DNA from: Octopus vulgaris
Lineage: Eukaryota
Direction of reading: 5' to 3'
Assembly: GCA_951406725.2 (NCBI GenBank)
Contig: OX597818.1
Span: 86,056,001 to 86,120,000 of the forward strand
DNA: 64,000 nt
In this document: positions 300 to 61,847 of the stretch, piece after piece
How the letters are laid out: each line of letters starts with the position of its first letter
Position numbering within the stretch: the first letter of the stretch is position 1
Program-made: the position numbers and the translations under genes
Notes under the pieces: generated by a model
Database searches by the model: none
Seen by the model: the letters and a program-made list of their open reading frames with translations, nothing else
Told to the model about the DNA's origin: nothing

Positions 300-2131
<1,832 letters not shown>

Positions 2132-2190
2132 ATATCTGTCTGCCTGCCTGTCTGTCCGTCTATCTATCTGTCTGTCTATCTATCTGCCTG

Positions 2191-3592
<1,402 letters not shown>

Positions 3593-3593
3593 A

Positions 3594-6092: not shown

Positions 6093-6493
6093 TGTGTGGT
6101 AAGTAGCTTGTTTACCAACCACATAGTTCCGGGTTCAGTCCCACTGCATGGCACTTTGGGCAAGTGTCTTCTACTATAGCCTCGGGCCGACCAAAGCCTT
6201 CTGAGTGGATTTGGTAGACGGAAACTGAAAGAAGTCCGTCGTATATATGTATATATATATATATGCGTGTGTGTGTTTGTGTGTCTGTGTTTGTCCCCCT
6301 AGCATTGCTTGACAACCGATGCTGGTTTGTTTATGTCCCCGTTACTTAGCGGTTCGGCAAAAGAGACCGATAGAATAAGTACTGGGCTTACAAAAGAATA
6401 AGTCCCGGGGTCGAGTTGCTCGATTAAAGGCGGTGCTCCAGCATGGCCGCAGTCAAATGACTGAAACAAGTAAAAGAGTAAAAGAGTAAAAGA

Positions 6494-6494
<1 letters not shown>
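6093..6494 (+). mobile_element. tRNA-derived bipartite SINE (family A) with an internal (TA)n(TG)n spacer and a (GTAAAAGA)n tail
   Basis: A-box-like TGTGTGGTAAG, B-box-like GGTTCAGTCCC, CORE-like TTGGGCAAGTGTCTT. Many homologous copies occur in the window. Confidence 0.85.
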
Positions 6495-6543
<49 letters not shown>

Positions 6544-7025
6544 TAAATTAGAGATAAAACCACTATTAGGCAAATCAAACAGGGAAAATCATAAGCCAAT
6601 ACATAGAAAAAAATTAATTAAAAAAATATAAAATATACATATAAAAAATATAAAATATAAAATTCCAAATTAAAATATTTAAATTAAAGTTAAAATACTA
6701 TTTATCTTATATTAAACTTTTAATACTTTTTGATAGTTATATAATTTACAAAAATAAAAAAATAAAAAATAAATAAAATAAAATAATAAAATAATAAAAT
6801 TTAAAAAAATTATAATATATATATATATATATTTAAAATTTATAACTTTAAATTATTTAAATAATTTAAAAAATTTCAACTTTAATTTAAATATTTTAAT
6901 TTGGAATTTTATATTTTATATTTTTTATATTTATACTTTATATTTTTTTAATTAATTTTTTTCTATGTATTGGATTATGATTTTCACTGTTTGATTTGCC
7001 TAATAGTGGCTTTATCTCTAATTTA
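6544..7025. repeat. AT-rich inverted repeat with ~150-bp arms
   Basis: 6544-6691 is the reverse complement of 6878-7025 with few mismatches (e.g. CCACTATTAGGCAAATCAAACAG / CTGTTTGATTTGCCTAATAGTGG). Confidence 0.85.
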
Positions 7026-7103
7026 ATATAATATATATTTATACTATAAAATTGGATTTAATCCTAAATCTAATTTTTCCCTGTAAGTTTGAATTTACTC
7101 CCT

Positions 7104-17264: not shown

Positions 17265-17489
17265 ATAATATAATCCTTTCTACTCTAGGCGCAAGACCCA
17301 AAAGTTTTGGGGAGGTGGGGCTAGTTGATTAGATCGACCCCAGTATACAACTGGTACTTAATTTATCGACCCCGAAAGGATGAAAGGCAAAGTCGACCTC
17401 GGCGGAATTTGAACTAAGACCGTAAAGACAGACGAAATATCGCTAAGCATTTCGCCCGGCGTGTTAACGTTTTTGCCAGCTCGCCGCCC
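17265..17489 (-). mobile_element. SINE family B, full copy (tail ...CCTAGAGTAGAAAGGATTAT)
   Basis: Head GGCGGCGAGCTGGCAAAAACGTTAACAC and core GCCTTTCATCCTTTCGGGGTCGATAAATTAAGTACCAG on the minus strand. Confidence 0.85.
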
Positions 17490-29967: not shown

Positions 29968-30026
<59 letters not shown>

Positions 30027-30029
<3 letters not shown>

Positions 30030-30241
30030 TCTTTTACTCTTTTACTTGTTTCAGTCAGCTGACTGCAGCCATGCTGGAGCACCACCTTTAATCGAGCAAC
30101 TCGACCCTGGGACTTATTCTTTGTAAGCCCAGTACTTATTCTATCGGTCTCTTTTGCCGAACCGCTAAGTGATGGGGACATAAACACACCAGCATCGGTT
30201 GTCAAGCAATGCTAGGGGGACAAATACAGACACACAAACAT

Positions 30242-30304
<63 letters not shown>

Positions 30305-30492
30305 CATATATACATATGTATACATATATACGACGGGCTTCTTTCAGTTTCCGTCTACCAAATCCACTCACAAGGCTTTGGTCGGCCCGAGGCTATAGTA
30401 GAAGACACTTGCCCAAGGTGCCATGCAGTGGGACTGAACCCGGAACCATATGGTTGGTAAGCAAGCTACTTACCACACAGCCACTCCTGCGC

Positions 30493-30493
<1 letters not shown>
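30027..30493 (-). mobile_element. SINE family A, full and little-diverged copy
   Basis: The reverse complement closely matches 57409-57822 and 6093-6494. Confidence 0.9.
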
Positions 30494-30542
<49 letters not shown>

Positions 30543-31990: not shown

Positions 31991-32329
31991 TTTCAATTGA
32001 TGACGTTGTGTTCGAGTAAAAGTGAGCTTCAGGGCAAGAGCAGGATATAGAAGCATCACCCTCATAACTGTTTTTGTTGATTTCTTGGAGTAAGGCTATG
32101 TACTCCCCTCCTCTTACGCCTACCCCCTTTTGTCACTGTGATCTATTGAAGATCCACCCACCTCACGCGATAGACTGGCGGTTGCATGGGCACTTGGGCA
32201 GTTATATGGGCTGAAAATTCCCTTGTACGTCTCCATTGTCGGCGTCCTTTCTCAGTAATGTTACCACACCTCGGCTAACAACTTTAAGAATTCCCCATTC
32301 TGTTGCCAGTTACTGTAGACATCTACCAA

Positions 32330-33550
32330 GAGGGTGCCAAACAAATTTGGCATGATTTGGTCACTCTGTTGCCAACTCCCTCTGTCTAGCGGCTTAGGCA
32401 TGCCATGGCTTTTGATGCGCAGACACGAATTCAGGTTGCGCCTCCTGCAATGATTTCTAGAGGGTAAACGTATGTGGGCTCCATTTGTGAGACATAGCTT
32501 TCCGCAGCTCGTCTCCTTGACGGAGCTGCAGTCCTGGGTAAAGGATAGGCCGAAACTGGGCGCCTAGCACTTAAAATGTCGTCATGCGCTCACTGTCCTC
32601 TACAAGTCGGGCAATAGGATCGGTGGATGTTTCACTTTAGCTATACACAGAGGATTAGTAACGGGGAAGTGCGACGACGTACTCGGAGAGACCCTAGAAG
32701 TCGACGAAGACGAACTGGCAAGTCTGTTCCGAGAACTTTCCGGTCGAGGACTATTATCGATAATTTCCAGATGCCTTTGGCCCAGCAGTGCTACTGGGGG
32801 AGGCGCTACAAGTTCAAAATAAACTCTACAAGCACGGGTGTGGCTGTCAGACGGGCTTGTCCGAGGTGCTGGCAGAGCGACAAAACCGTTCTTCATGCAC
32901 TCGTTCGGTGTCCGGGCACTGCTGACTTGTGGAGTTATGTCGAACAGCTGCTGTCGCGTGTGGGACGGATCCGTCTGTCAGCCGAGTCCATAAGGATGAT
33001 TTTCCTGCTGCCCGCCCTTATTCGGGCAGTCAAGGCAGTTTTCCTTTGTCAGGTGGCTGTGGCGAAATATGTTATCTGGCGGACGTGACTGAAATGAATG
33101 AGAACAGAAAAATTCCTCCTTGGTAAAGTCCCCATGGACATTTTCAATCTTAAATTCAAAGGAAAGTGAGGGGGGGAAAAGGAGATGCTGTCCACGAGTG
33201 AATTTATGACAATGTGGGTGACAGTTGCGAAAATGGCCAGAGTGGATAGTACCGCTCTCAATGTACACCTGTGAATCGGAAGAAAGGAGTTGGAGAGGGC
33301 ACTCGTCCTTAGTATTCAGGCTGATTTTGGATGGTGGGGTTCTTCGATTATACCTAGAAGTCCTCTGGTATCATTTTCACTTCTTTTTCTCCCTCTTCTT
33401 CTAGTGTCGTATACTATGTATACTTCCCTACTTCAGATGAATACCGTCTAATACTTTTTTTTATCATTCCATCATATATAAACCCTCACACTTTACGTCT
33501 GTCTGTGTATTGTCCCCTCATCCTTCGCCCTGGTGGCAAATAAAAGAAAT
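32330..33550 (+). mobile_element. Older, degraded relative of the Tx1 LINE
   Basis: Translates to SGLGMPWLLMRRH, FPQLVSLTELQSW, CPRCWQSDKTVLHALVRC, AKYVIWRT, with stops and frameshifts. The 3' end GCCCTGGTGGCAAATAAAAGAAAT is followed by (ATC/ATT)n. Confidence 0.85.
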
Positions 33551-33675
33551 TATCATCATCATCGTTATTCTCCTCCTCCTCCTCCTCATTATTATTATTA
33601 TTGCTGTTGTTGTTGTTGTTATTATTATTATTGTTATTATCAATATTATTATTATTATCCTTATCATCATCATCA

Positions 33676-33712
<37 letters not shown>

Positions 33713-33745
33713 CATCATCATCATTATTATTATTGCTGCTGCTGT

Positions 33746-33813
<68 letters not shown>

Positions 33814-39009: not shown

Positions 39010-39422
39010 AGGCGGTGACCTGACAGGATCGTTAGTACACCGGCGATAAAGCTTAGCGGCATTTCGTCCATCTGTACCTCCTGTGTTCAAGTTCCACCAA
39101 GGATGACTTTGTTTTCCATCCTTTCGGAGTTGATAAAATAAGTACCAATTAAACACTGGAGTCGATGTAATCGACTTATCCCCACAGAACTTGCTAGCCT
39201 TGTACCAAAATTTGAAACCAATATATAAGTATATAAGGCGGAGAGCTGGCAGAATCGTTAGCAAAATGCTTAGCGGCATTTCATCCATTTTACGTTCTGA
39301 GTTCAAATTCCGCTCAGATTGATTTGCCTTTCATCCTTTTCAGATTGATAAAATAATATCAGTTGAGTACTTAGGTCCTCCTCTGAAATTTCCAGCCTTG
39401 TGTCAAAGTTTGAAATCAATAT
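39010..39422 (+). mobile_element. Two tandem SINE family B copies (tail ...CCTTGTRYCAAARTTTGAAAYCAAT)
   Basis: Heads at about 39010 and 39236; both carry the TTTCATCCTTT core. Confidence 0.75.
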
Positions 39423-40439
39423 TTCTTCTCATGTGACATCCATAACTGATTGGTAAAAATTCACTCACCAACAAATTTCAGCAATTATTTCACACACATG
39501 CCGTTTCTCCTCTCTGCCTCATATAACGCTACATCCATGGGCTCGCTTTCACTGAACTACAAAGCTGTATACCCTTTCCACCCAATCTCCGTTGTAGCAC
39601 ATGAGTATCATGAAACTAGTCACATTAAATACTTTGAACGGTCACCCTTTCCCTCGAATTGCGACACACAGGAATTTTCTCTCCATGTCCAAGCTTTACC
39701 TTCCAGACATCAGCAGACAAATGCTTGAGCTGAATTAAAACCATGATGATGATGATGACGACGGAGGGTTGTGATAGTGGTGTTTGTGGTGGTGGCGATT
39801 ACGGTGGTGGTGGTAGTGGTGGTATTTACGACTACGACCGATGATTAAAACCACGCCATTCTTGCATCATCATTATCGTCATCATGCTTATTATGATCAT
39901 CATCACAGCTACATTTGCCATCATCATCGTCGTCGTCGTCCTTCTCCTCCTCCTCCTCCTCATCATCATCATCATCGGTCTTAGTCGTAAATACCACCAC
40001 CACCACTGCAATCGCCACCACTACAAACACCATTACCACAACCCTACTGCTATCATAATCATCACCACCACCACCACCACCATCATCATCATCACTGATG
40101 TCGTCACCAACGTCATCTACCTTTTTCTCCTATCGTTTTTATTTATTTATTTTTTTTTCTTCCCTCATACTTCATTTTTTCCTCTCCCCAAAACCGCTAC
40201 AAAAACCACAGCGAATACCTCAACATCGCCCTAATACCCACACCACTACAACCAAAACCACAACAAGAATCTCTACCACAATACCAACTCCAATCTCCAC
40301 CACCACTTCCACCAGCATCACCATTCCGGCGTCTCCACCTCTGCGATCATTTCCTGTCAATTATGCTAAAAGAAAATATTATAATTAAGATAATGGTGTG
40401 TTTGGAATGGAACTAGCAGCGATATAACGTACTTCTTGC

Positions 40440-44730: not shown

Positions 44731-44961
44731 GGTGGCGAGTTGGCAGAAACGTTAGCACGCCGGGCGAAATGCTTAGCAGTATTTCGTATGCCGCTACGTT
44801 CTGAGTTCAAATTCCGACGAGGTAGACTTTACCTTTCATCCTTTCGGAGTCGATTTAATAAGTACTAGTTACGCACTGGGGTTGATATAATCGACTTAAT
44901 CCATTTGTCTGTCCTTGTTTGTCCCCTCTGTGTGTAGCCCCTTATGGGTAGTAAAGAAATA
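44731..44961 (+). mobile_element. SINE family B with a Tx1-like tail
   Basis: Ends CCTTGTTTGTCCCCTCTGTGTGTAGCCCCTTATGGGTAGTAAAGAAAT. Confidence 0.85.
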
Positions 44962-45156
44962 AGAAACGTTAGAACGACGGGCGAAATGCTTAGCAGTATT
45001 TCGTCTGTCTTTACGTTCTGAGTTCAAATTCCGCCGAAGTCGACTTTGCTTTTCATCCTTTCGGGGTCGATAAATTAAGTAGTAATTGCGTACTGGGATC
45101 AATCTAATCGACTGGCCCCCTCTCTCAAAATTTCGGACCTTGTATCTAGAGTAGAA
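44962..45156 (+). mobile_element. SINE family B lacking the first ~14 nt, with the alternative tail
   Basis: Starts AGAAACGTTAG and ends CCTTGTATCTAGAGTAGAA. Confidence 0.8.
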
Positions 45157-46945: not shown

Positions 46946-47719
46946 TATAGAAGTCGGCCAGCTGGCAGCATCGTTAGCATCGGGGGGATAAATGCTCAGT
47001 GGCATTTTGTCTGCCTTTACTTTCTGAGTTCAAATTCTGCCGAGCTCGATTTTGCTTTTCATACTTTCGATAAAGTAAGTACCAGTTGAAATCTGAAGCC
47101 GATATGATCAACTTAACCCTTCCCCGAACTTGCAGGCCTTGTGCAAAAATTTTAAACCTACTTACATTCATTTATTTATGTATTTATGTATGTATGTATA
47201 TGTGTATATATGTATTTTTGTACGAGAAGAGAATAAAACAGATTTATCGTTTTACTATAACATCATAAATTACATATTCTTTACACGTGTGCGGTAATCG
47301 TTAGGAAGACAATTGCGTAATAACCTTTAAACATCAGATCTTCAGAAAAAGATAATCTAAGTATACTCAATGCTTGACTGGAATCTGTATAAACAGAGAT
47401 TTACATGGAGTTTTAAGCATTGCTCAACCGTTATACCATCTCATTCGAATTGGCGATCTTTCAACACGCACGCACATACTCACGCACGCAAAACGCACAC
47501 ACACACACACATATATAAAGTAAAGACAAATGGCGTTTGAGATTTACGACGGCTGCTCCAGTATAATTTCATTTATTTAATGCGGTCTTAGAAGATTACA
47601 TCTTGATAAATAATCAACCACCATCATGTAAGATGTTAAACATCTACTCAGACAAAATCATTATTAGCTGAACCAGTCTTCTTATGAATATTTATCACAC
47701 AATCACATATTCTTTTATT

Positions 47720-49741: not shown

Positions 49742-49796
49742 ATATCAATTACTAAGGTGGCTTTTTCGCAATTTACAACCAAAAGGCACAAATATA

Positions 49797-50048
49797 GACG
49801 TCACCAAGGCGACTGAGGGTGCAATCCAGCACCAGTATTCCTAGAAATATGAGTCAGAAGACCTCTTAGCCACGTGAAGCAATTATCTAATGACGAAATC
49901 ATCAGTGATATGGCTCTGTCTAGCTTGATGTGGGGTGCTGGTCTTCCTTAGTAATGAGATAAGTTCTTCCCGTGGCTAAGAGCTGTTCTGACTCTTATTT
50001 CTAACAATGCTAGTGCTGGCTAGCACCCCCGGTTACCTTAGTGACGTC
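49797..50048. mobile_element. MITE with ~100-bp TIRs and a TA target duplication
   Basis: TA|GACGTCACCAAGG..CTCTTAGCCACG is the inverse of CGTGGCTAAGAG..CCTTAGTGACGTC|TA. Confidence 0.8.
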
Positions 50049-50213
50049 TAAATTTACAAGTTTTTTTTTCATTCTCTCTCTGTTTATTTTCCCGTATTCC
50101 TTTCTGTTGAAACGTAAATGACTTTTTCATTATCCCGAGCATCAAACTAATACACCTGCCTGTTGTTCATACACCTGTCTTCGTCTTTTATTTTTCTATA
50201 AATTTCAACTGTT

Positions 50214-52530: not shown

Positions 52531-52809
52531 ATGTATGTATGTATGTATGTATGTACGTATGTATGTTTGTATAGAGATATATTTTCAAGCTAAAAAGCGA
52601 GGTCTTTATATCATACCGAGTTTATACTTATTAGAAATTAGTCTCTAATCCTTTTACTTCTCAGAGTTTCGCGTTTTTAAGGCACATATATCTCACGGTC
52701 AGACAACATTTGGCGGAATTGAGGAAACTTCCTCTGCGACACAGCAACTTGTAGAATTTTGAATAGTGAAGGTGTGCAAAATCATCGAATACATCGCTAA
52801 ATAAAAATA

Positions 52810-53030
52810 TTGATTTCAAATTTTAGCGCAAATCTAGCAATTTCGAAGGAAAGTTGTAATGTAAGTCGATTACATCGACCCTAGTGTTGAACTGGTACTT
52901 ATTTTATCGATTCTGATAGGATTAAAAGTAAAGTCTACCACGGTGGAATTTGAACTCAGGAGATGAAGACTGACGAAATACCACTAAGCATTTTGCTCGG
53001 CGTGCTAACGATTCTGCCAGCTCACCGCTT
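52810..53030 (-). mobile_element. SINE family B copy
   Basis: Reverse complement of the head, core and TTTGAAATCAAT tail. Confidence 0.75.
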
Positions 53031-53051: not shown

Positions 53052-53199
53052 GGAGTGGCTGTGTGGTAAGTAGCTTGCTTACGAACCACATGGTTCCGGG
53101 TTCAGTCCCACTGCGTGGGACCTTGGGTAAGTGTCTTCTACTATAGCCTCGGGCCAACCAAAGAGTTGTGAGTGGATTTGGTAGATGGAAACTGAAAGA

Positions 53200-53235
<36 letters not shown>

Positions 53236-53473
53236 GTGTATATGCTTGGGTGTCTGTGTTTGTCCACCACCCCCACCCCCACCCCTACCAACATCGCTCG
53301 ACAATCGATGCTGGTGCGATTACGTCCTCGTATGCTAACGGTTCGGCGAAAGCGACCGATAGAATAAGTACTAAGCTTACAAAGAATATGTCCTGGGCGC
53401 GATTTGCTCGACTAAAGGTGGTGCTTCAGCATGGCCACAGTCAAATGACTGAAACAAATAAAAGAGTAAAAGA
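53052..53473 (+). mobile_element. SINE family A, full copy
   Basis: Homologous to 57409-57822. Confidence 0.85.
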
Positions 53474-54137
53474 GCATATCAAATTTTGTCACAAGGCCAG
53501 CAATTTTGGGGAGGGGGTAAGTCGATTACAACGAGTCCGGTGTTCAACTGCTACTTATTTTATCAACTGCGGTGAGATGAAAGGCAAAGTCACCCCCGGT
53601 GGATTTTGACTCAGAACGTAAAGATTGAATAGAAATAATGCTTGCTAAACTACAAAAGTGCACAGAATGCATAGGAAATTATTTATGCATCTATACACTC
53701 TTTTGCCGGTATAGTATAGCTTGCATACTTCATGTCTAATAAATCTACCCCTCCTCCTCACCCCCACACATATTCACTTATATGCATGTACATAAAGCAA
53801 ACAATACACAATAATTGCATTCTCATATTTTCCTGCGTTTTATGTTCACATTCAGTGTATACGAACCAATGAATTGACAGACAAATAGATATAGTTGAAC
53901 AAATATATAGATACGTAAACGTTCGCCAGTACGCATGCACCTGAATATTAACACACCTACATATATACACGCACACACACATCATAAATATATATGTTTA
54001 CATATACTATGTACTGTATACCTTATGTATATACTTATACGTGCGTACGTATGTGTGTGGGAGGGAGGCTTACTTAAACGTCAGATACGTTTGCTCGGTG
54101 TACTATACCGACAAAAGCGTGTGCGTTTGTGTGTGTG

Positions 54138-55280: not shown

Positions 55281-55879
55281 GTATAATGCCTGAACTGAAA
55301 CAGAAAAAAAAAAATGAATGATATAAATACTATATTTTCTTCATTTCTTTTCTATTCTCATTATAACTATATCTCCATTTTCGTGTTGCTATCTTTTCTT
55401 ATTTCTATATCTACATTCGTCTGAGCGTATTGATTTTAATTTACGTTCATACAATTGTGTATGGGTTAGCAAAGCCTAGGGTCATAATTTCGAGTAATCG
55501 GCTGCCAGTGGCTTTAAATTCTTAAAGAAGACGTACCTTTTGTAACAATAGTAGGAGAGGTCACTTTTCGTATATGCAGTTTTCCTTATGGAAGTAGAGG
55601 AGGCCAATGTGATGAACTCTAAGGGAGTAAAGAAGAGTCCTCAGAAGAAAACACTGGAGGAACCCAAGGAAACTGCTTCCATGGTTCTGGAGTGTCCGGA
55701 TAAAGCAGGAGCAGAGGGTGGAGTTTTCACTGTCCCTACCCTTGAAAGCGTTCTTTATTTTTGCATAAATCTTTCAGTGGACTCATCGGCTGACATAACC
55801 ATCTAAAGAAATAAAGAAAGAGAGACAGAGATGGGGAGGGAGAGAGAGGTAAAGTGAGAGAGAGGTAATGAAAGAGTCA

Positions 55880-56120
55880 TGGCGACGAGCTGGCGGCGAG
55901 CTGGCAGAAACGTTAGCACGCCGGGCGAAATGCTTAGCGGTATTTCGTCTGCGTTACGTTGTGAGTTCGAATTCCGCCGAGGTATACTTTGCCTTTCATC
56001 GTTTCGGGGTCGATAAATTAAGCACCAGTTACGCACTGGGGTCGATGTAATCGACTTAATACCTATGTCTGTCCTCGTTTGTCCCCTCTGTGTTTAGCCC
56101 CTTGTGGGTAATAAAGAAAT
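55880..56120 (+). mobile_element. Full-length SINE family B with a Tx1-like tail and a 17-bp TSD
   Basis: TSD AGGTAATGAAAGAGTCA at 55863-55879 and 56121-56137. tRNA-like head, Meta-like core, tail ..TAGCCCCTTGTGGGTAATAAAGAAAT. Confidence 0.9.
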
Positions 56121-56738
56121 AGGTAATGAAAGAGTCAAAGAGAAAGACAGAGAGACTCGTTTACTACATTCCATCTTTATAACTGTATAAAGTGGTGGGA
56201 GCACTGTTCGTTGGCGGGTGCCACAGTTATGAGTCTACAGCTGCATCCTGTCCGTCGAAATTGCGTATTCACAGCTAACCTTTAAATCTATAGATTTATA
56301 CATTCATGTCTCGAGGTTATTCGACTCTACGCCACAGGTTGATGCGAACTATAACGCTAGAGAAGCTCTACAATGGAACGGACACACACACACACATACA
56401 CACACACACATACACACACACACACACACACAGAGCAAGAGAGAGAAAGAGAAGGAGAAAGAAAGATAAGGATGGAGACTATCAATTAGCTAATTAAGCA
56501 CAATGTGATCATTTAGTTGATGGGTCGAAGCAAGTGTACGGGTGACAGACAGATGAGAGAGACAAAGACGACCCTGTAGACGAGGAAAGTAGATAAGGCA
56601 ATTAATCCGTAGACATTGTAAACAATATGCTGGCCAGGAAATGTTACACCCACGCTCCAGTATCAATCGAAACATTACATCTTTGTCCGACCTGGCAGAC
56701 AGACATATCGTACTCACATAGATTGCACACGCGCATTC

Positions 56739-56876: not shown

Positions 56877-57408
56877 GATGCATATATATACAATACATAC
56901 GTACATATAACACATATACACATACTTACACATATTCACACATACAAACAGACATGCATATATACATACATACATACATATACATACATACATGCATACA
57001 TACATATATACATACATACATACATACATACATACATACATACATACATACATACATACGGAAGCTATCGACTCATAAACGCATATGACCATCACTGGCA
57101 AATTATCTTATCCTAGATGTTAAAGAGAATGAGTAGTTGTGATGCCTGAGCTGAAATTTGAAATCAATAACAACCACCAATGCAACATCGCTAAGACTCT
57201 CACCTACAAAGCCAAGTAATCCGAGAACAAGCAGGAGCAGGATCTCTGGCTTTGCAATGGTGGGAGGGGAGTATTCTTTCGGAATTTCTTCCTCCTAAAG
57301 AGATGTGTCTAAAGAAAGATTAGGGATCTCCCAATCCCAGTTGTTGGGTAGCTGTTGACTCTACTGTGTTCATCTGTCCTTTGACAGGATTTGTTTGTCG
57401 ACATACAT

Positions 57409-57822
57409 AGGCGCAGGAGTGGCTGTGTGGTAAGTAGCTTGCTAACCAACCACATGGTTCCGGGTTCAGTCCCACTGCGTAGCATCTTGGGCAAGTGTCT
57501 TCTGCTATAGCCCCGGGCCGACCAATGCCTTGTGAGTGGATTTGGTTGACGGAAACTGAAAGAAGCCTGTCGTATATATGTATATATATGTATATGTATG
57601 TATGTGCATGTGTTTGTGTGTCTGTGTTTGTACCACTAGCATTGCTTGACAACCGATGCTGGTGTGTTTACGTCCCCGTCACTTAGCGGTTCGGCAAAAG
57701 AGACCGATAGAATAAGTACTGGGCTTACAACGAATAAGTCCCGGGGTCGATTTGCTCGACTAAAGGCGGTGCTCCAGCATGGCCGCAGTCAAATGACTGA
57801 AACAAGTAAAAGAGTAAAAGAG
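57409..57822 (+). mobile_element. SINE family A, full copy
   Basis: GGCGCAGGAGTGGCTGTGTGGTAAG head, internal TA/TG spacer, (GTAAAAGA)n tail. Confidence 0.9.
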
Positions 57823-58911
57823 TATACATACATACCTACATACATACATACATACATACATACATACTTACATGCATACATACATACATACATACATACA
57901 CATACACATAAATACATAAATACATACATAAATACATACATACATACATGCATGCATACATACATACATATATACATACATACATACATACATACATACA
58001 TGCATACATACATACACATACACATACACATAAATACATACATACATACATACATGCATACATACATACACATACACATAAACACATAAATACATATATA
58101 CATGCATGCATGCATACATATATACATACATACACATACACATAAATACATAACTACATACATCCATGCATACATACACACATATACATGCATACATACA
58201 TGAATACATACACACACATATATGCATACATACATGCATAAAAATATACGTATTCATAGAGAACTATACACACAAACATATACATACGTACATATATACA
58301 TTAAAACATACACATATATATATATATATATGCATAAATACAAACGTATACGTACACAAATATATATACATATATATACACAAACATAGACATGCATACA
58401 TAATACATACACGCATACGTGCCTGCACACACAAACGCACACATACACAAACACACAAAAACACACACTTACACACACACATACACACACACACACCCTC
58501 TCACACACATATACAGAGAAACAGGCAACTGCTAGGCAGACGACCAGCGTCACAGGCGGACACACATAACTATCTAGTTGAAGTCCAAATTCCTAAAAGA
58601 GGGCCTTGGATCTAGATTGCAAACAGACGTTTTTATATTGCTGGGAATTGCTTTAAATATAATCAGATCGCATGTAAATAGACACACACACACACACACA
58701 CAGATGCACGCAAGCACACACACATGCACGCACGCACGCAAGCACACACATACACGCACGTACACATACAACGATGCATGTATAAATACATACATACGTA
58801 TACATGAGTGTACGTGTGTGTGTGTGTAAGCATCCATTCAGATAGATAAGATAAACATACTTAGACATCAATGCATATAGATATATATATCTATACATAC
58901 ACACACACACA

Positions 58912-61067: not shown

Positions 61068-61069
<2 letters not shown>

Positions 61070-61846
61070 AGAGCGACGAAACCGTTCTGCACGCACTCGT
61101 GCAGTGTCCAACAATTTCCGACCTGTGGGCTTGTGTCGAACAACTGCTGTCACGTGTGGGACGAGTCGGTTTATCAGCTGAGTCTATCGTTAATATTGTC
61201 ACGCCTCCCTCCTTCAAACGGGAAGGAAGAGCTATTTTCATCATCCTTGTGGCTATGGCGAAAGAATGTATCTGGTGGACGCGTCTGAAAGGATTGGAGA
61301 CAAACACTTTCCTCTCTGGTCAATCTCTCATCAACTTCTTCAAGTACCACTTGAAAAGGAAAGTGAGAGTAGAGAGGCAAGTTTTGTCTAGCGAACGTTT
61401 TAAAAAAGATGGGTGAATGTAGCAAGAATGGCACGTATGAATGACGAAGCCACCATGAGCATGATCCTATGAACGCAGAAATTGAAAACAGAGAGTTGCT
61501 TATTTGCAAAAAAAAAAAAAAAAAAGAAATATAACATCTGACTCCATTGACCGAGGTTACCGTGGCCTTTTCCGTAGGCTTTTCTTTCCACGGGTAAACC
61601 TCACATGTCCTCCCCTTTACACTTCATATTGACATTTCTGTGATAACGATCCCTATTGATCAATTTTTTTTTTCCTCTCCCCCTTTTTTAACCCCCCTTT
61701 TTTTGTCCTCTTTCTCTCCTTTTACGATCCCTTTTGATCGAAACTCCCCCTTCCTTTCTTTTTTTTTTTTTTAAACCTTCAAAAGAAAAGCTCTACCTTG
61801 TAATTTGTTCTATCTGTGTGCAGCCCTGTGTGGCTAATAAAGAAAC
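61068..61846 (+). mobile_element. Tx1-clade LINE copy 3, independently 5'-truncated, in (TATC)n
   Basis: Starts at TCAGAGCGACGAAACC ([13 protein letters not shown]). Highly similar to copies 1 and 2, with a 1-bp deletion in an A-run near 61405. Same 3' end, TATC on both sides. Confidence 0.9.
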
Positions 61847-61847
61847 A

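Follow-up and report, generated by a model that had tools for sequence, protein, structure and literature searches.

Known SINE/LINE pairs and the octopus locus

In stringent retroposon pairs, a tRNA-headed short interspersed element (SINE) carries a 3′ end that matches the 3′ end of a long interspersed element (LINE) of the same genome. Among the 58 SINE/LINE pairs tabulated by Ohshima (2013, PMC3747384), none has a Tx1 partner and none is from a mollusc, in agreement with Ohshima 2012 (PMC3472496), and three belong to the L1 clade (maize/sorghum and Chlamydomonas); here and below, cited papers are represented by the parts of their text that were available. We analyzed 64,000 bp of Octopus vulgaris DNA (contig OX597818.1, positions 86,056,001 to 86,120,000; hereafter, the window, with positions counted from its first base), in which a SINE with a tRNA-like head (55863-56137 with its flanking duplications) ends in a tail, termed tail T, that matches the 3′ ends of LINEs of the Tx1 type in the same window. 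Tail T is real and Tx1-like. The SINE and LINEs resemble a stringent pair, without a target common to the SINE and the young LINE; the stem-loop of the known pairs shows compensatory changes, and the small hairpin seen here shows none in the four rows aligned.

A described case of SINEs moved by Tx1 is SINEU of crocodilians (Kojima 2015, PMC4494074), which was linked to Tx1-Mar by shared targets; these elements have poly(A) tails, and that text reports no LINE sharing their 3′ end. The likeness would lie in a SINE moved by Tx1, a target-site duplication (TSD) length near 17 bp (16 bp in SINEU-3), a preference for another repeat, and tandem copies from repeated insertion at the same site. SINEU differs in its U1/U2 heads and poly(A), whereas the octopus SINE has a tRNA-like head and no poly(A), gives no Rfam match over 55700-56300, and is linked to Tx1 by its tail. 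The Tx1 families Kibi in (TC)n, Koshi in (TTC)n, and those of crocodilians in (TTCC)n/(TTTC)n are, like the young octopus LINE, embedded in simple repeats (PMC4494074). They differ in the unit, which in the octopus is TATC for the young LINE and possibly ATC for the old one, and that text names no SINE as their partner.

The MetaSINE, CORE, V, and Deu elements of molluscs (Nishihara 2016, PMC4824008; Martelossi 2024, PMC11481361) also bear several tails on one head and body, but their partners are CR1, CR1-Zenon, L2, and Nimb, and the body of the octopus SINE is not Meta. Tail homologies between bivalve SINEs and LINEs span 35-61 bp at 72-95% identity (PMC11481361), and the tail-T match falls inside this range. 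Tx1 and octopus are absent from the main text of that paper and from the available text of Kojima 2018 (PMC5786205), and octopus SINEs and L1-Tx1 elements were counted without partners being named in the available parts of Bonar 2026 (PMC13282606) and Marino 2022 (PMC8967140). Three sequence motifs had no match in the paper texts, nor had motifs in the part of the supplement files searched. No SINE with a Tx1-derived tail was found in the literature searched, which did not cover the first papers on octopus SINEs or the databases Repbase, Dfam, and SINEBase.

Given its abundance, the SINE family with tail T is very likely one of the octopus SINEs already described or listed in databases, and the Tx1 pairing itself may already stand in a database entry. 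Ohshima and Okada reportedly described OK, OR1, and OR2 in 1994, and Albertin and colleagues are said to have added 'Twin' in 2015. These are likewise abundant tRNA-derived octopus SINEs, and none of them is given a Tx1 tail in the text available.

Tail T and the 3′ ends of the LINEs

The window holds a young LINE subfamily, with copies 98-99.5% alike, and an older, decayed one. The part of tail T at 56078-56119 aligned without gaps with three young LINE ends (3550-3591, 2089-2130, and 61804-61845) at 34 of 42 positions (BLAST E 7.7e-6 in the window). The similarity overall spans the last 42-60 bases of the SINE and is about 58 nt long against the older LINE end. When both strands of the whole window were scanned with the 42 nt, scores of at least 30 were reached only by the two tail-T SINE copies (42 and 39), the three LINE ends (34), and a stub of the LINE end (30); the next best score, representing the background, was 23. 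Local alignment of the 65-nt tail scored 44 against the young 3′ untranslated region (UTR) and 35 against the old one, and neither score was reached in 2000 dinucleotide shuffles. The tail of the second SINE copy (44897-44961) was matched by 0 of 2000 shuffles for the young UTR and 6 of 2000 for the old UTR, where its best alignment covers the upstream 23 nt only.

The alignments of tail T end at the LINE terminus (position 382/384 in the young and 281/282 in the old UTR), and in the SINE the TSD follows directly. The four young LINE ends terminate at one common base, both SINE copies terminate at its equivalent, and all lack poly(A); LINE 2313-3593, for example, ends with AATAAAGAAACA. The two UTRs (384 and 282 nt) have their best mutual alignment in the last 24 nt, which 5 of 500 shuffles equaled, and thus the end seems to be a constrained part of the LINE, which suggests the LINE as donor. 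The upstream part of tail T fits the older LINE subfamily better (GTCTGTC..TGT.TTGTCCCCTC).

A sequence-only reading of this locus had aligned the SINE tail with the young and older LINE ends and taken it for a terminal, LINE-derived segment from the Tx1 group. Alignments, shuffles, and the reverse transcriptase (RT) tree described below all agree with it, and the tail similarity, which it had proposed to check against chance, was well above both shuffles and background. Its claim that all ends keep a GCC(C)..GG(C/T) hairpin held in part: the inverted repeat is present in all ends, but it comprises 3-4 bp, is shifted by one base in the SINE relative to the LINE, and lends no support to a conserved hairpin, as it is no more stable than shuffles (z of -1.44, -0.62, and +0.60 for the last 37 nt and -1.35, 0.00, -0.03, and -0.22 for the last 56-58 nt). 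Both tail T and the young LINE end fold outer helices UCU/AGA and UGU/AUA. As no extra stability and no compensatory pair were found, hairpin covariation was dropped as evidence.

Placement of the LINE in the Tx1 clade

Among named proteins, the window LINE protein has its nearest homologues in Argonauta hians and Octopus bimaculoides. The window copies are 5′-truncated, and the LINE fragment has a zf-RVT domain; RT was found in P0003/P0004, and PF03372, PF00078, and PF13966 occur together in relatives at about 40%. The window copy and its relatives thus jointly show the second open reading frame (ORF2) of the Tx1 type, with an AP-type endonuclease, RT, and C-terminal zinc knuckle. P0169 (1111 aa) is 70% identical to the window fragment; its score was 340 bits with Xenopus Tx1 ORF2, compared with 175 bits for human L1 ORF2p. 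In a tree of 14 RT rows, the LINE family grouped with Xenopus Tx1 at 99/98, and grouping with vertebrate L1 was rejected (approximately unbiased [AU] test, p 0.0136); a quick tree of 48 rows, 34 of which the careful 14-row tree leaves out, agreed (SH-aLRT 87). Two L1 references were identified by their score against human L1 and one by its grouping with those two. These results corroborate the Tx1 type that the sequence-only reading had assigned. NCBIfam returned only sub-threshold matches to group II RT, and the protein atlas returned unnamed RT clusters.

One predicted gene product, the Octopus bimaculoides Rho GEF 10-like protein P0005, begins with about 45 residues of LINE ORF2 (83% identity), probably through a gene-model artefact or exonisation.

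Tail T as an apparent swapped module of an abundant family

The copy at 55863-56137 has the traits of a SINE: it is short, interspersed, of high copy number, and flanked by a 17-bp TSD, with no coding capacity. The TSD claimed for it is exact, as the flanks match for lengths of 10-17 and fail for 18-21, and the element proper is 55880-56121. The duplication at its 5′ end is present and near-perfect rather than perfect (Table 1). The head contains a B-box-like GTTCGAA at 55965 and, as judged by eye, an A-box-like TGGCAGAA at 55901; only a loose B box was matched, and the strict A and B patterns failed. The head folds with a z of -2.6, and ARAGORN, like Rfam, gave no match to it. No TTTT terminator occurs from 55892 to 56400. 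The body had been called Meta-like, a label that we do not retain: compared by eye, it is unlike BivaMeta-SINE1 in the available MetaSINE supplement (PMC4824008), and a 14-nt Meta motif allowing up to 3 mismatches matched none of the SINE copies. In MetaSINEs, a Meta domain of 66 bp directly follows the tRNA head.

BLAST with the SINE body gave 12 matches at E<1e-7 in the window, of which two bear tail T, two tail B, and five tail C, with three unassigned. Tails B and C had escaped the sequence-only reading. Five tail-B/C controls scored like shuffles against both LINE UTRs (455-1904 of 2000), and no LINE partner for either tail was found in the window. As the same head and body bear these tails, unlike either LINE, tail T appears to be a swapped module.

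Genome-wide evidence came from public contigs of four runs aligned to the SINE (four organism labels from three studies; 131,467-293,863 contigs per run); two insect-labelled RNA runs with 0.15-0.20 of words were excluded. Variants were drawn from 40 of 69 rows, loose ends from 24 of 1689, and joints from 15 of 490. In these contigs, the SINE starts at 55892. Peak-bin depths for tail T and body, which are not copy numbers, were 31.8/40.8, 66.1/66.2, 10.7/11.0, and 10.1/10.8 million, and since tail T is nearly as deep as the body in all four runs, it is a fixed feature of the family. Tail B branches off at 56056 in all four runs, and tail C branches off at 56058 in two of the four among the rows listed. 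Two SINE variants equal the letter of the young LINE (56085 C>T at 18-25% and 56094 T>G at 5-10%). At 56111, A>G makes up 61-63% of the depth in all four runs, and AATAAAGAAA is therefore the minority SINE allele and AGTAAA the majority.

Junctions and target sites

Both SINE copies lie outside TATC arrays, as had been reported; GGTA.. and AGAA.. stand behind them. The young LINE was inserted into TATC arrays in both of its independent insertions, which are only two in number.

Among the loose ends listed in the contigs, the only 3′-end class lies behind 56125 (1107, 1413, 713, and 583 contigs), and it continues with GGTA, like the target of the window copy itself. The majority reading there, TTTCGTCTGCC, corresponds to the head of the SINE itself from 55939 onward; the agreement of 0.38-0.47 indicates a mixture. 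Four listed joints run from the head at 55946-55952 back to 55892 (34, 41, 27, and 24 contigs), and in two joint rows of one run the host head extends 15-16 nt past 55939, followed by GAAA and a new head. Both classes fit insertions of new copies into the head of the family itself, accompanied by a duplication of 15-16 bp. A second site, 55906, recurs in joints from 56115-56121 (30, 49, 23, and 19 contigs) and has a counterpart at 44961/44962 of the window. None of the junctions is phased, and the contig counts cannot separate many insertions from one amplified dimer. The sequence-only reading had proposed a sister LINE with relaxed targeting; the junctions instead hint at a target preference led by GGTA that includes the SINE's own head.

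Origin of tail T and alternative explanations

We consider it likely that the tail of this high-copy octopod SINE came from a third, unseen subfamily of Tx1, and that the enzyme of that LINE copies the SINE. The last 42 nt of tail T agree with the young LINE and the bases upstream of them with the old one, which makes a third subfamily the likeliest source. In the mechanism that we propose, the SINE would be transcribed by RNA polymerase III from its tRNA-like head, a template switch to Tx1 RNA would have given an ancestral SINE the Tx1 3′ end, and Tx1 ORF2p would recognize tail T in trans, with reverse transcription primed at the fixed end AAAGAAA(C/T)A. The partner endonuclease would prefer a site beginning with GGTA and not TATC repeats.

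Several results weigh against this account. The closest LINE tail found is 81% identical to tail T. Degenerate tail patterns and ORF2 scans in viral, metagenome, and prokaryote collections did not reveal the exact partner LINE: the patterns gave no locus in viral contigs, two in metagenome contigs, both read as bacterial coding DNA, and nine in prokaryote genomes, taken as chance from their bacterial titles, and the ORF2 alignments found no relative in the prokaryote and viral collections. With 261 query proteins, the window yielded Tx1-type fragments only and thus offers no 3′ end of another LINE clade for comparison. The Tx1 placement itself relies on relatives, a single named Tx1 protein, and three proteins of L1. 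The covariation check proposed for the hairpin gave 2 pairs with 0 compensatory changes in the four-row alignment, and none of the two SINE copies lies in TATC, against both independent insertions of the young LINE. Some SINE variants lead away from the LINE (56090 G>A at 18-30%, 56111 A>G at 61-63%, and C>T at 56084 and 56086). Without AATAAAGAAA, the tail match is reached by 25 (young) and 40 (old) of 2000 shuffles (p about 0.01-0.02).

This last drop, the shortness of the match, and the internal occurrence of GTCTGTGTTTGTCCCC in an unrelated window repeat (6237-6252 region) would suit a chance or convergent likeness of T/G-rich low complexity and a word like the poly(A) signal. We regard such a coincidence as very improbable, because no shuffle reached the whole tail, the background stays at or below 23/42, and the match is terminal in two LINE subfamilies; moreover, a SINE transcribed by RNA polymerase III needs no AATAAA, and most copies have AGTAAA. 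The direction of transfer could also have been the reverse, from the SINE, which is far more abundant as judged by its contigs per run, to the LINE lineage. This is barely credible, as the tail terminates both LINE subfamilies, whose identity of only 66% indicates a greater age than the roughly 89% identity among the tail-T SINE copies, and the established pairs run from LINE to SINE (PMC3747384).

The partner might instead be the young TATC-embedded LINE or its direct ancestor, with a tail that drifted and a SINE RNA for which the choice of insertion site is looser than for LINE RNA in cis. The young LINE gives the best tail score (44 vs 35), carries the letters of two SINE variants, and has the outer helices in common with tail T. 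Yet the endonuclease mainly sets the target (PMC4494074), which is at odds with the two SINE copies outside TATC, and the LINE copies are 98-99.5% alike, compared with 89% for the SINE copies. With 8 mismatches in 42, different flanks, and an upstream part of tail T that fits the older subfamily, the young LINE is probably not the exact partner, and we consider this alternative unlikely. It is less probable still that the tail is a Tx1 relic captured once, and that the family spread mostly as read-through dimers or tandem arrays through a downstream tail (B or C) or by amplification at the DNA level. The SINE head very often stands behind tail T (TTTCGTCTGCC at the loose ends and the joints to 55906), such a dimer lies in the window at 44961/44962, and the unphased junctions, the ambiguous contig counts, and the missing TTTT terminator keep read-through dimers as a rival. 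Nevertheless, the copy at 55863 is a monomer, and its exact 17-bp TSD, which lies at the end of tail T, is simply explained only by priming there. Matching 5′ joints, in which the host head reaches 55946-55952 before a new head, were moreover present in all four runs and fit an insertion with a duplication of 15-16 bp.

Features of the window

The features are listed in Table 1. No TSD was found around the dimer at 44731 or around the older LINE. The copies at 859-2132 and 2313-3593 represent one duplicated insertion, given their common 5′ truncation and near-identity; counting them as two insertions was thus ruled out, and two independent insertions into TATC remain. Two of the four young LINE ends thereby belong to one tandem duplication, which the earlier reading had missed. 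The region 469-3593 reads as stub and compound TATC spacer, LINE and spacer, and LINE; the spacer behind 507 recurs behind 2132, which, with the common truncation, indicates duplication at the DNA level.

Table 1. Features of the SINE family and the Tx1-type LINEs in the window.
Feature	Position	Strand	Remarks
Left TSD	55863-55879	+	17 bp, AGGTA at start
Right TSD	56121-56137	+	First A common to element end
Duplicated SINE 5′ end, 11 nt	55880-55890	+	10/11 identical to 55891-55901
tRNA-like head	55892-55978	+	Pairing ends GGCGG/CCGCC in fold; long inner hairpin 55923-55950
Body common to all tail types	55979-56056	+	Not Meta
Tail T	56057-56121	+	56078-56119 similar to young LINE end (34/42); 56064-56120 similar to older LINE end; without poly(A)
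Second tail-T copy	44731-44961	+	204/230 identical to first copy
Head and body with tail B	17265-17488	-	Matches neither LINE
5′-truncated copy with tail B	44962-45155	+	Directly behind tail-T copy; starts at AGAAACGTTAG; joint recurs in 4/4 runs
Head and body with tail C	52805-53028	-	Matches neither LINE
Further tail-C copies	Starts 39011, 39237, 46955; 53621	+ (first three); - (last)	Extents 39011-39430, 46955-47165, 53465-53621 (-)
Young Tx1-type LINE, 5′-truncated (ORF2 C-terminus and 3′ UTR)	859-2132	+	In TATC array
Tandem duplicate of LINE 859-2132	2313-3593	+	Same 5′ truncation; 1267/1273 identical; zf-RVT; ORF2 stop 3209
LINE-end stub, last 37-39 nt of young LINE	469-507	+	Inside tandem array of 469-3593
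Independent young LINE insertion, shorter 5′ truncation	61068-61847	+	TATC array; 396/405 identical over ORF part
Older decayed Tx1-type LINE	32361-33550	+	66% nt identity to young; related tail; then ATC/ATT repeats
Inverted RT-region piece adjoining older LINE 5′ end	32205-32353	-	

In the older LINE, residues 443-492 of P0169 are inverted and followed by residue 810 onward. Inversions at the 5′ end are known from L1 twin priming, and the inverted piece together with the LINE at 32361-33550 resembles them. The ATC/ATT repeats behind this LINE (33551-33800) are perhaps a microsatellite target other than TATC.

The inner hairpin of the SINE head has the recurrent junction (55939) at its loop, which could make the hairpin a nicking site. 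Another abundant family resembling SINEs, about 450 bp long and with a TA/TG repeat inside, occurs at 6093-6544, 29976-30500 (-), 57403-57866, 53052-53479, and further positions; it has short motifs in common with the SINE body and contains GTCTGTGTTTGTCCCC internally, like the start of tail T. Self-BLAST revealed self-complementary palindromic stretches at 6521-7048 (82%) and 49790-50055 (73%). The window as a whole is microsatellite-rich animal DNA.

Significance for octopus SINEs and the Tx1 clade

In Octopus vulgaris, about 11.6% of the genome consists of SINEs, and 13 families of L1-Tx1 have been active recently (PMC13282606); the enzyme behind the SINE expansion is not named in the literature examined. 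Stringent SINE/LINE pairs as such are known; a pairing of a SINE with Tx1 by a shared tail was not found described for this clade in the literature searched. It is possible, if on balance doubtful, that by a tail swap the SINE lineage switched to a Tx1 enzyme that needs no poly(A), recognizes sequence, and has a GGTA-led target in the SINE's own head, with the result that the family homes into itself and forms nested and tandem clusters. If so, a stringent Tx1/SINE pair in an animal would be combined with self-targeting. Ohshima proposed that strict recognition of tails is the ancestral state and that mammalian L1 lost it. An animal Tx1 element with a fixed end free of poly(A), copied by a SINE, would be a natural test of that model, for which the three alternative tails on one body would serve as built-in controls.
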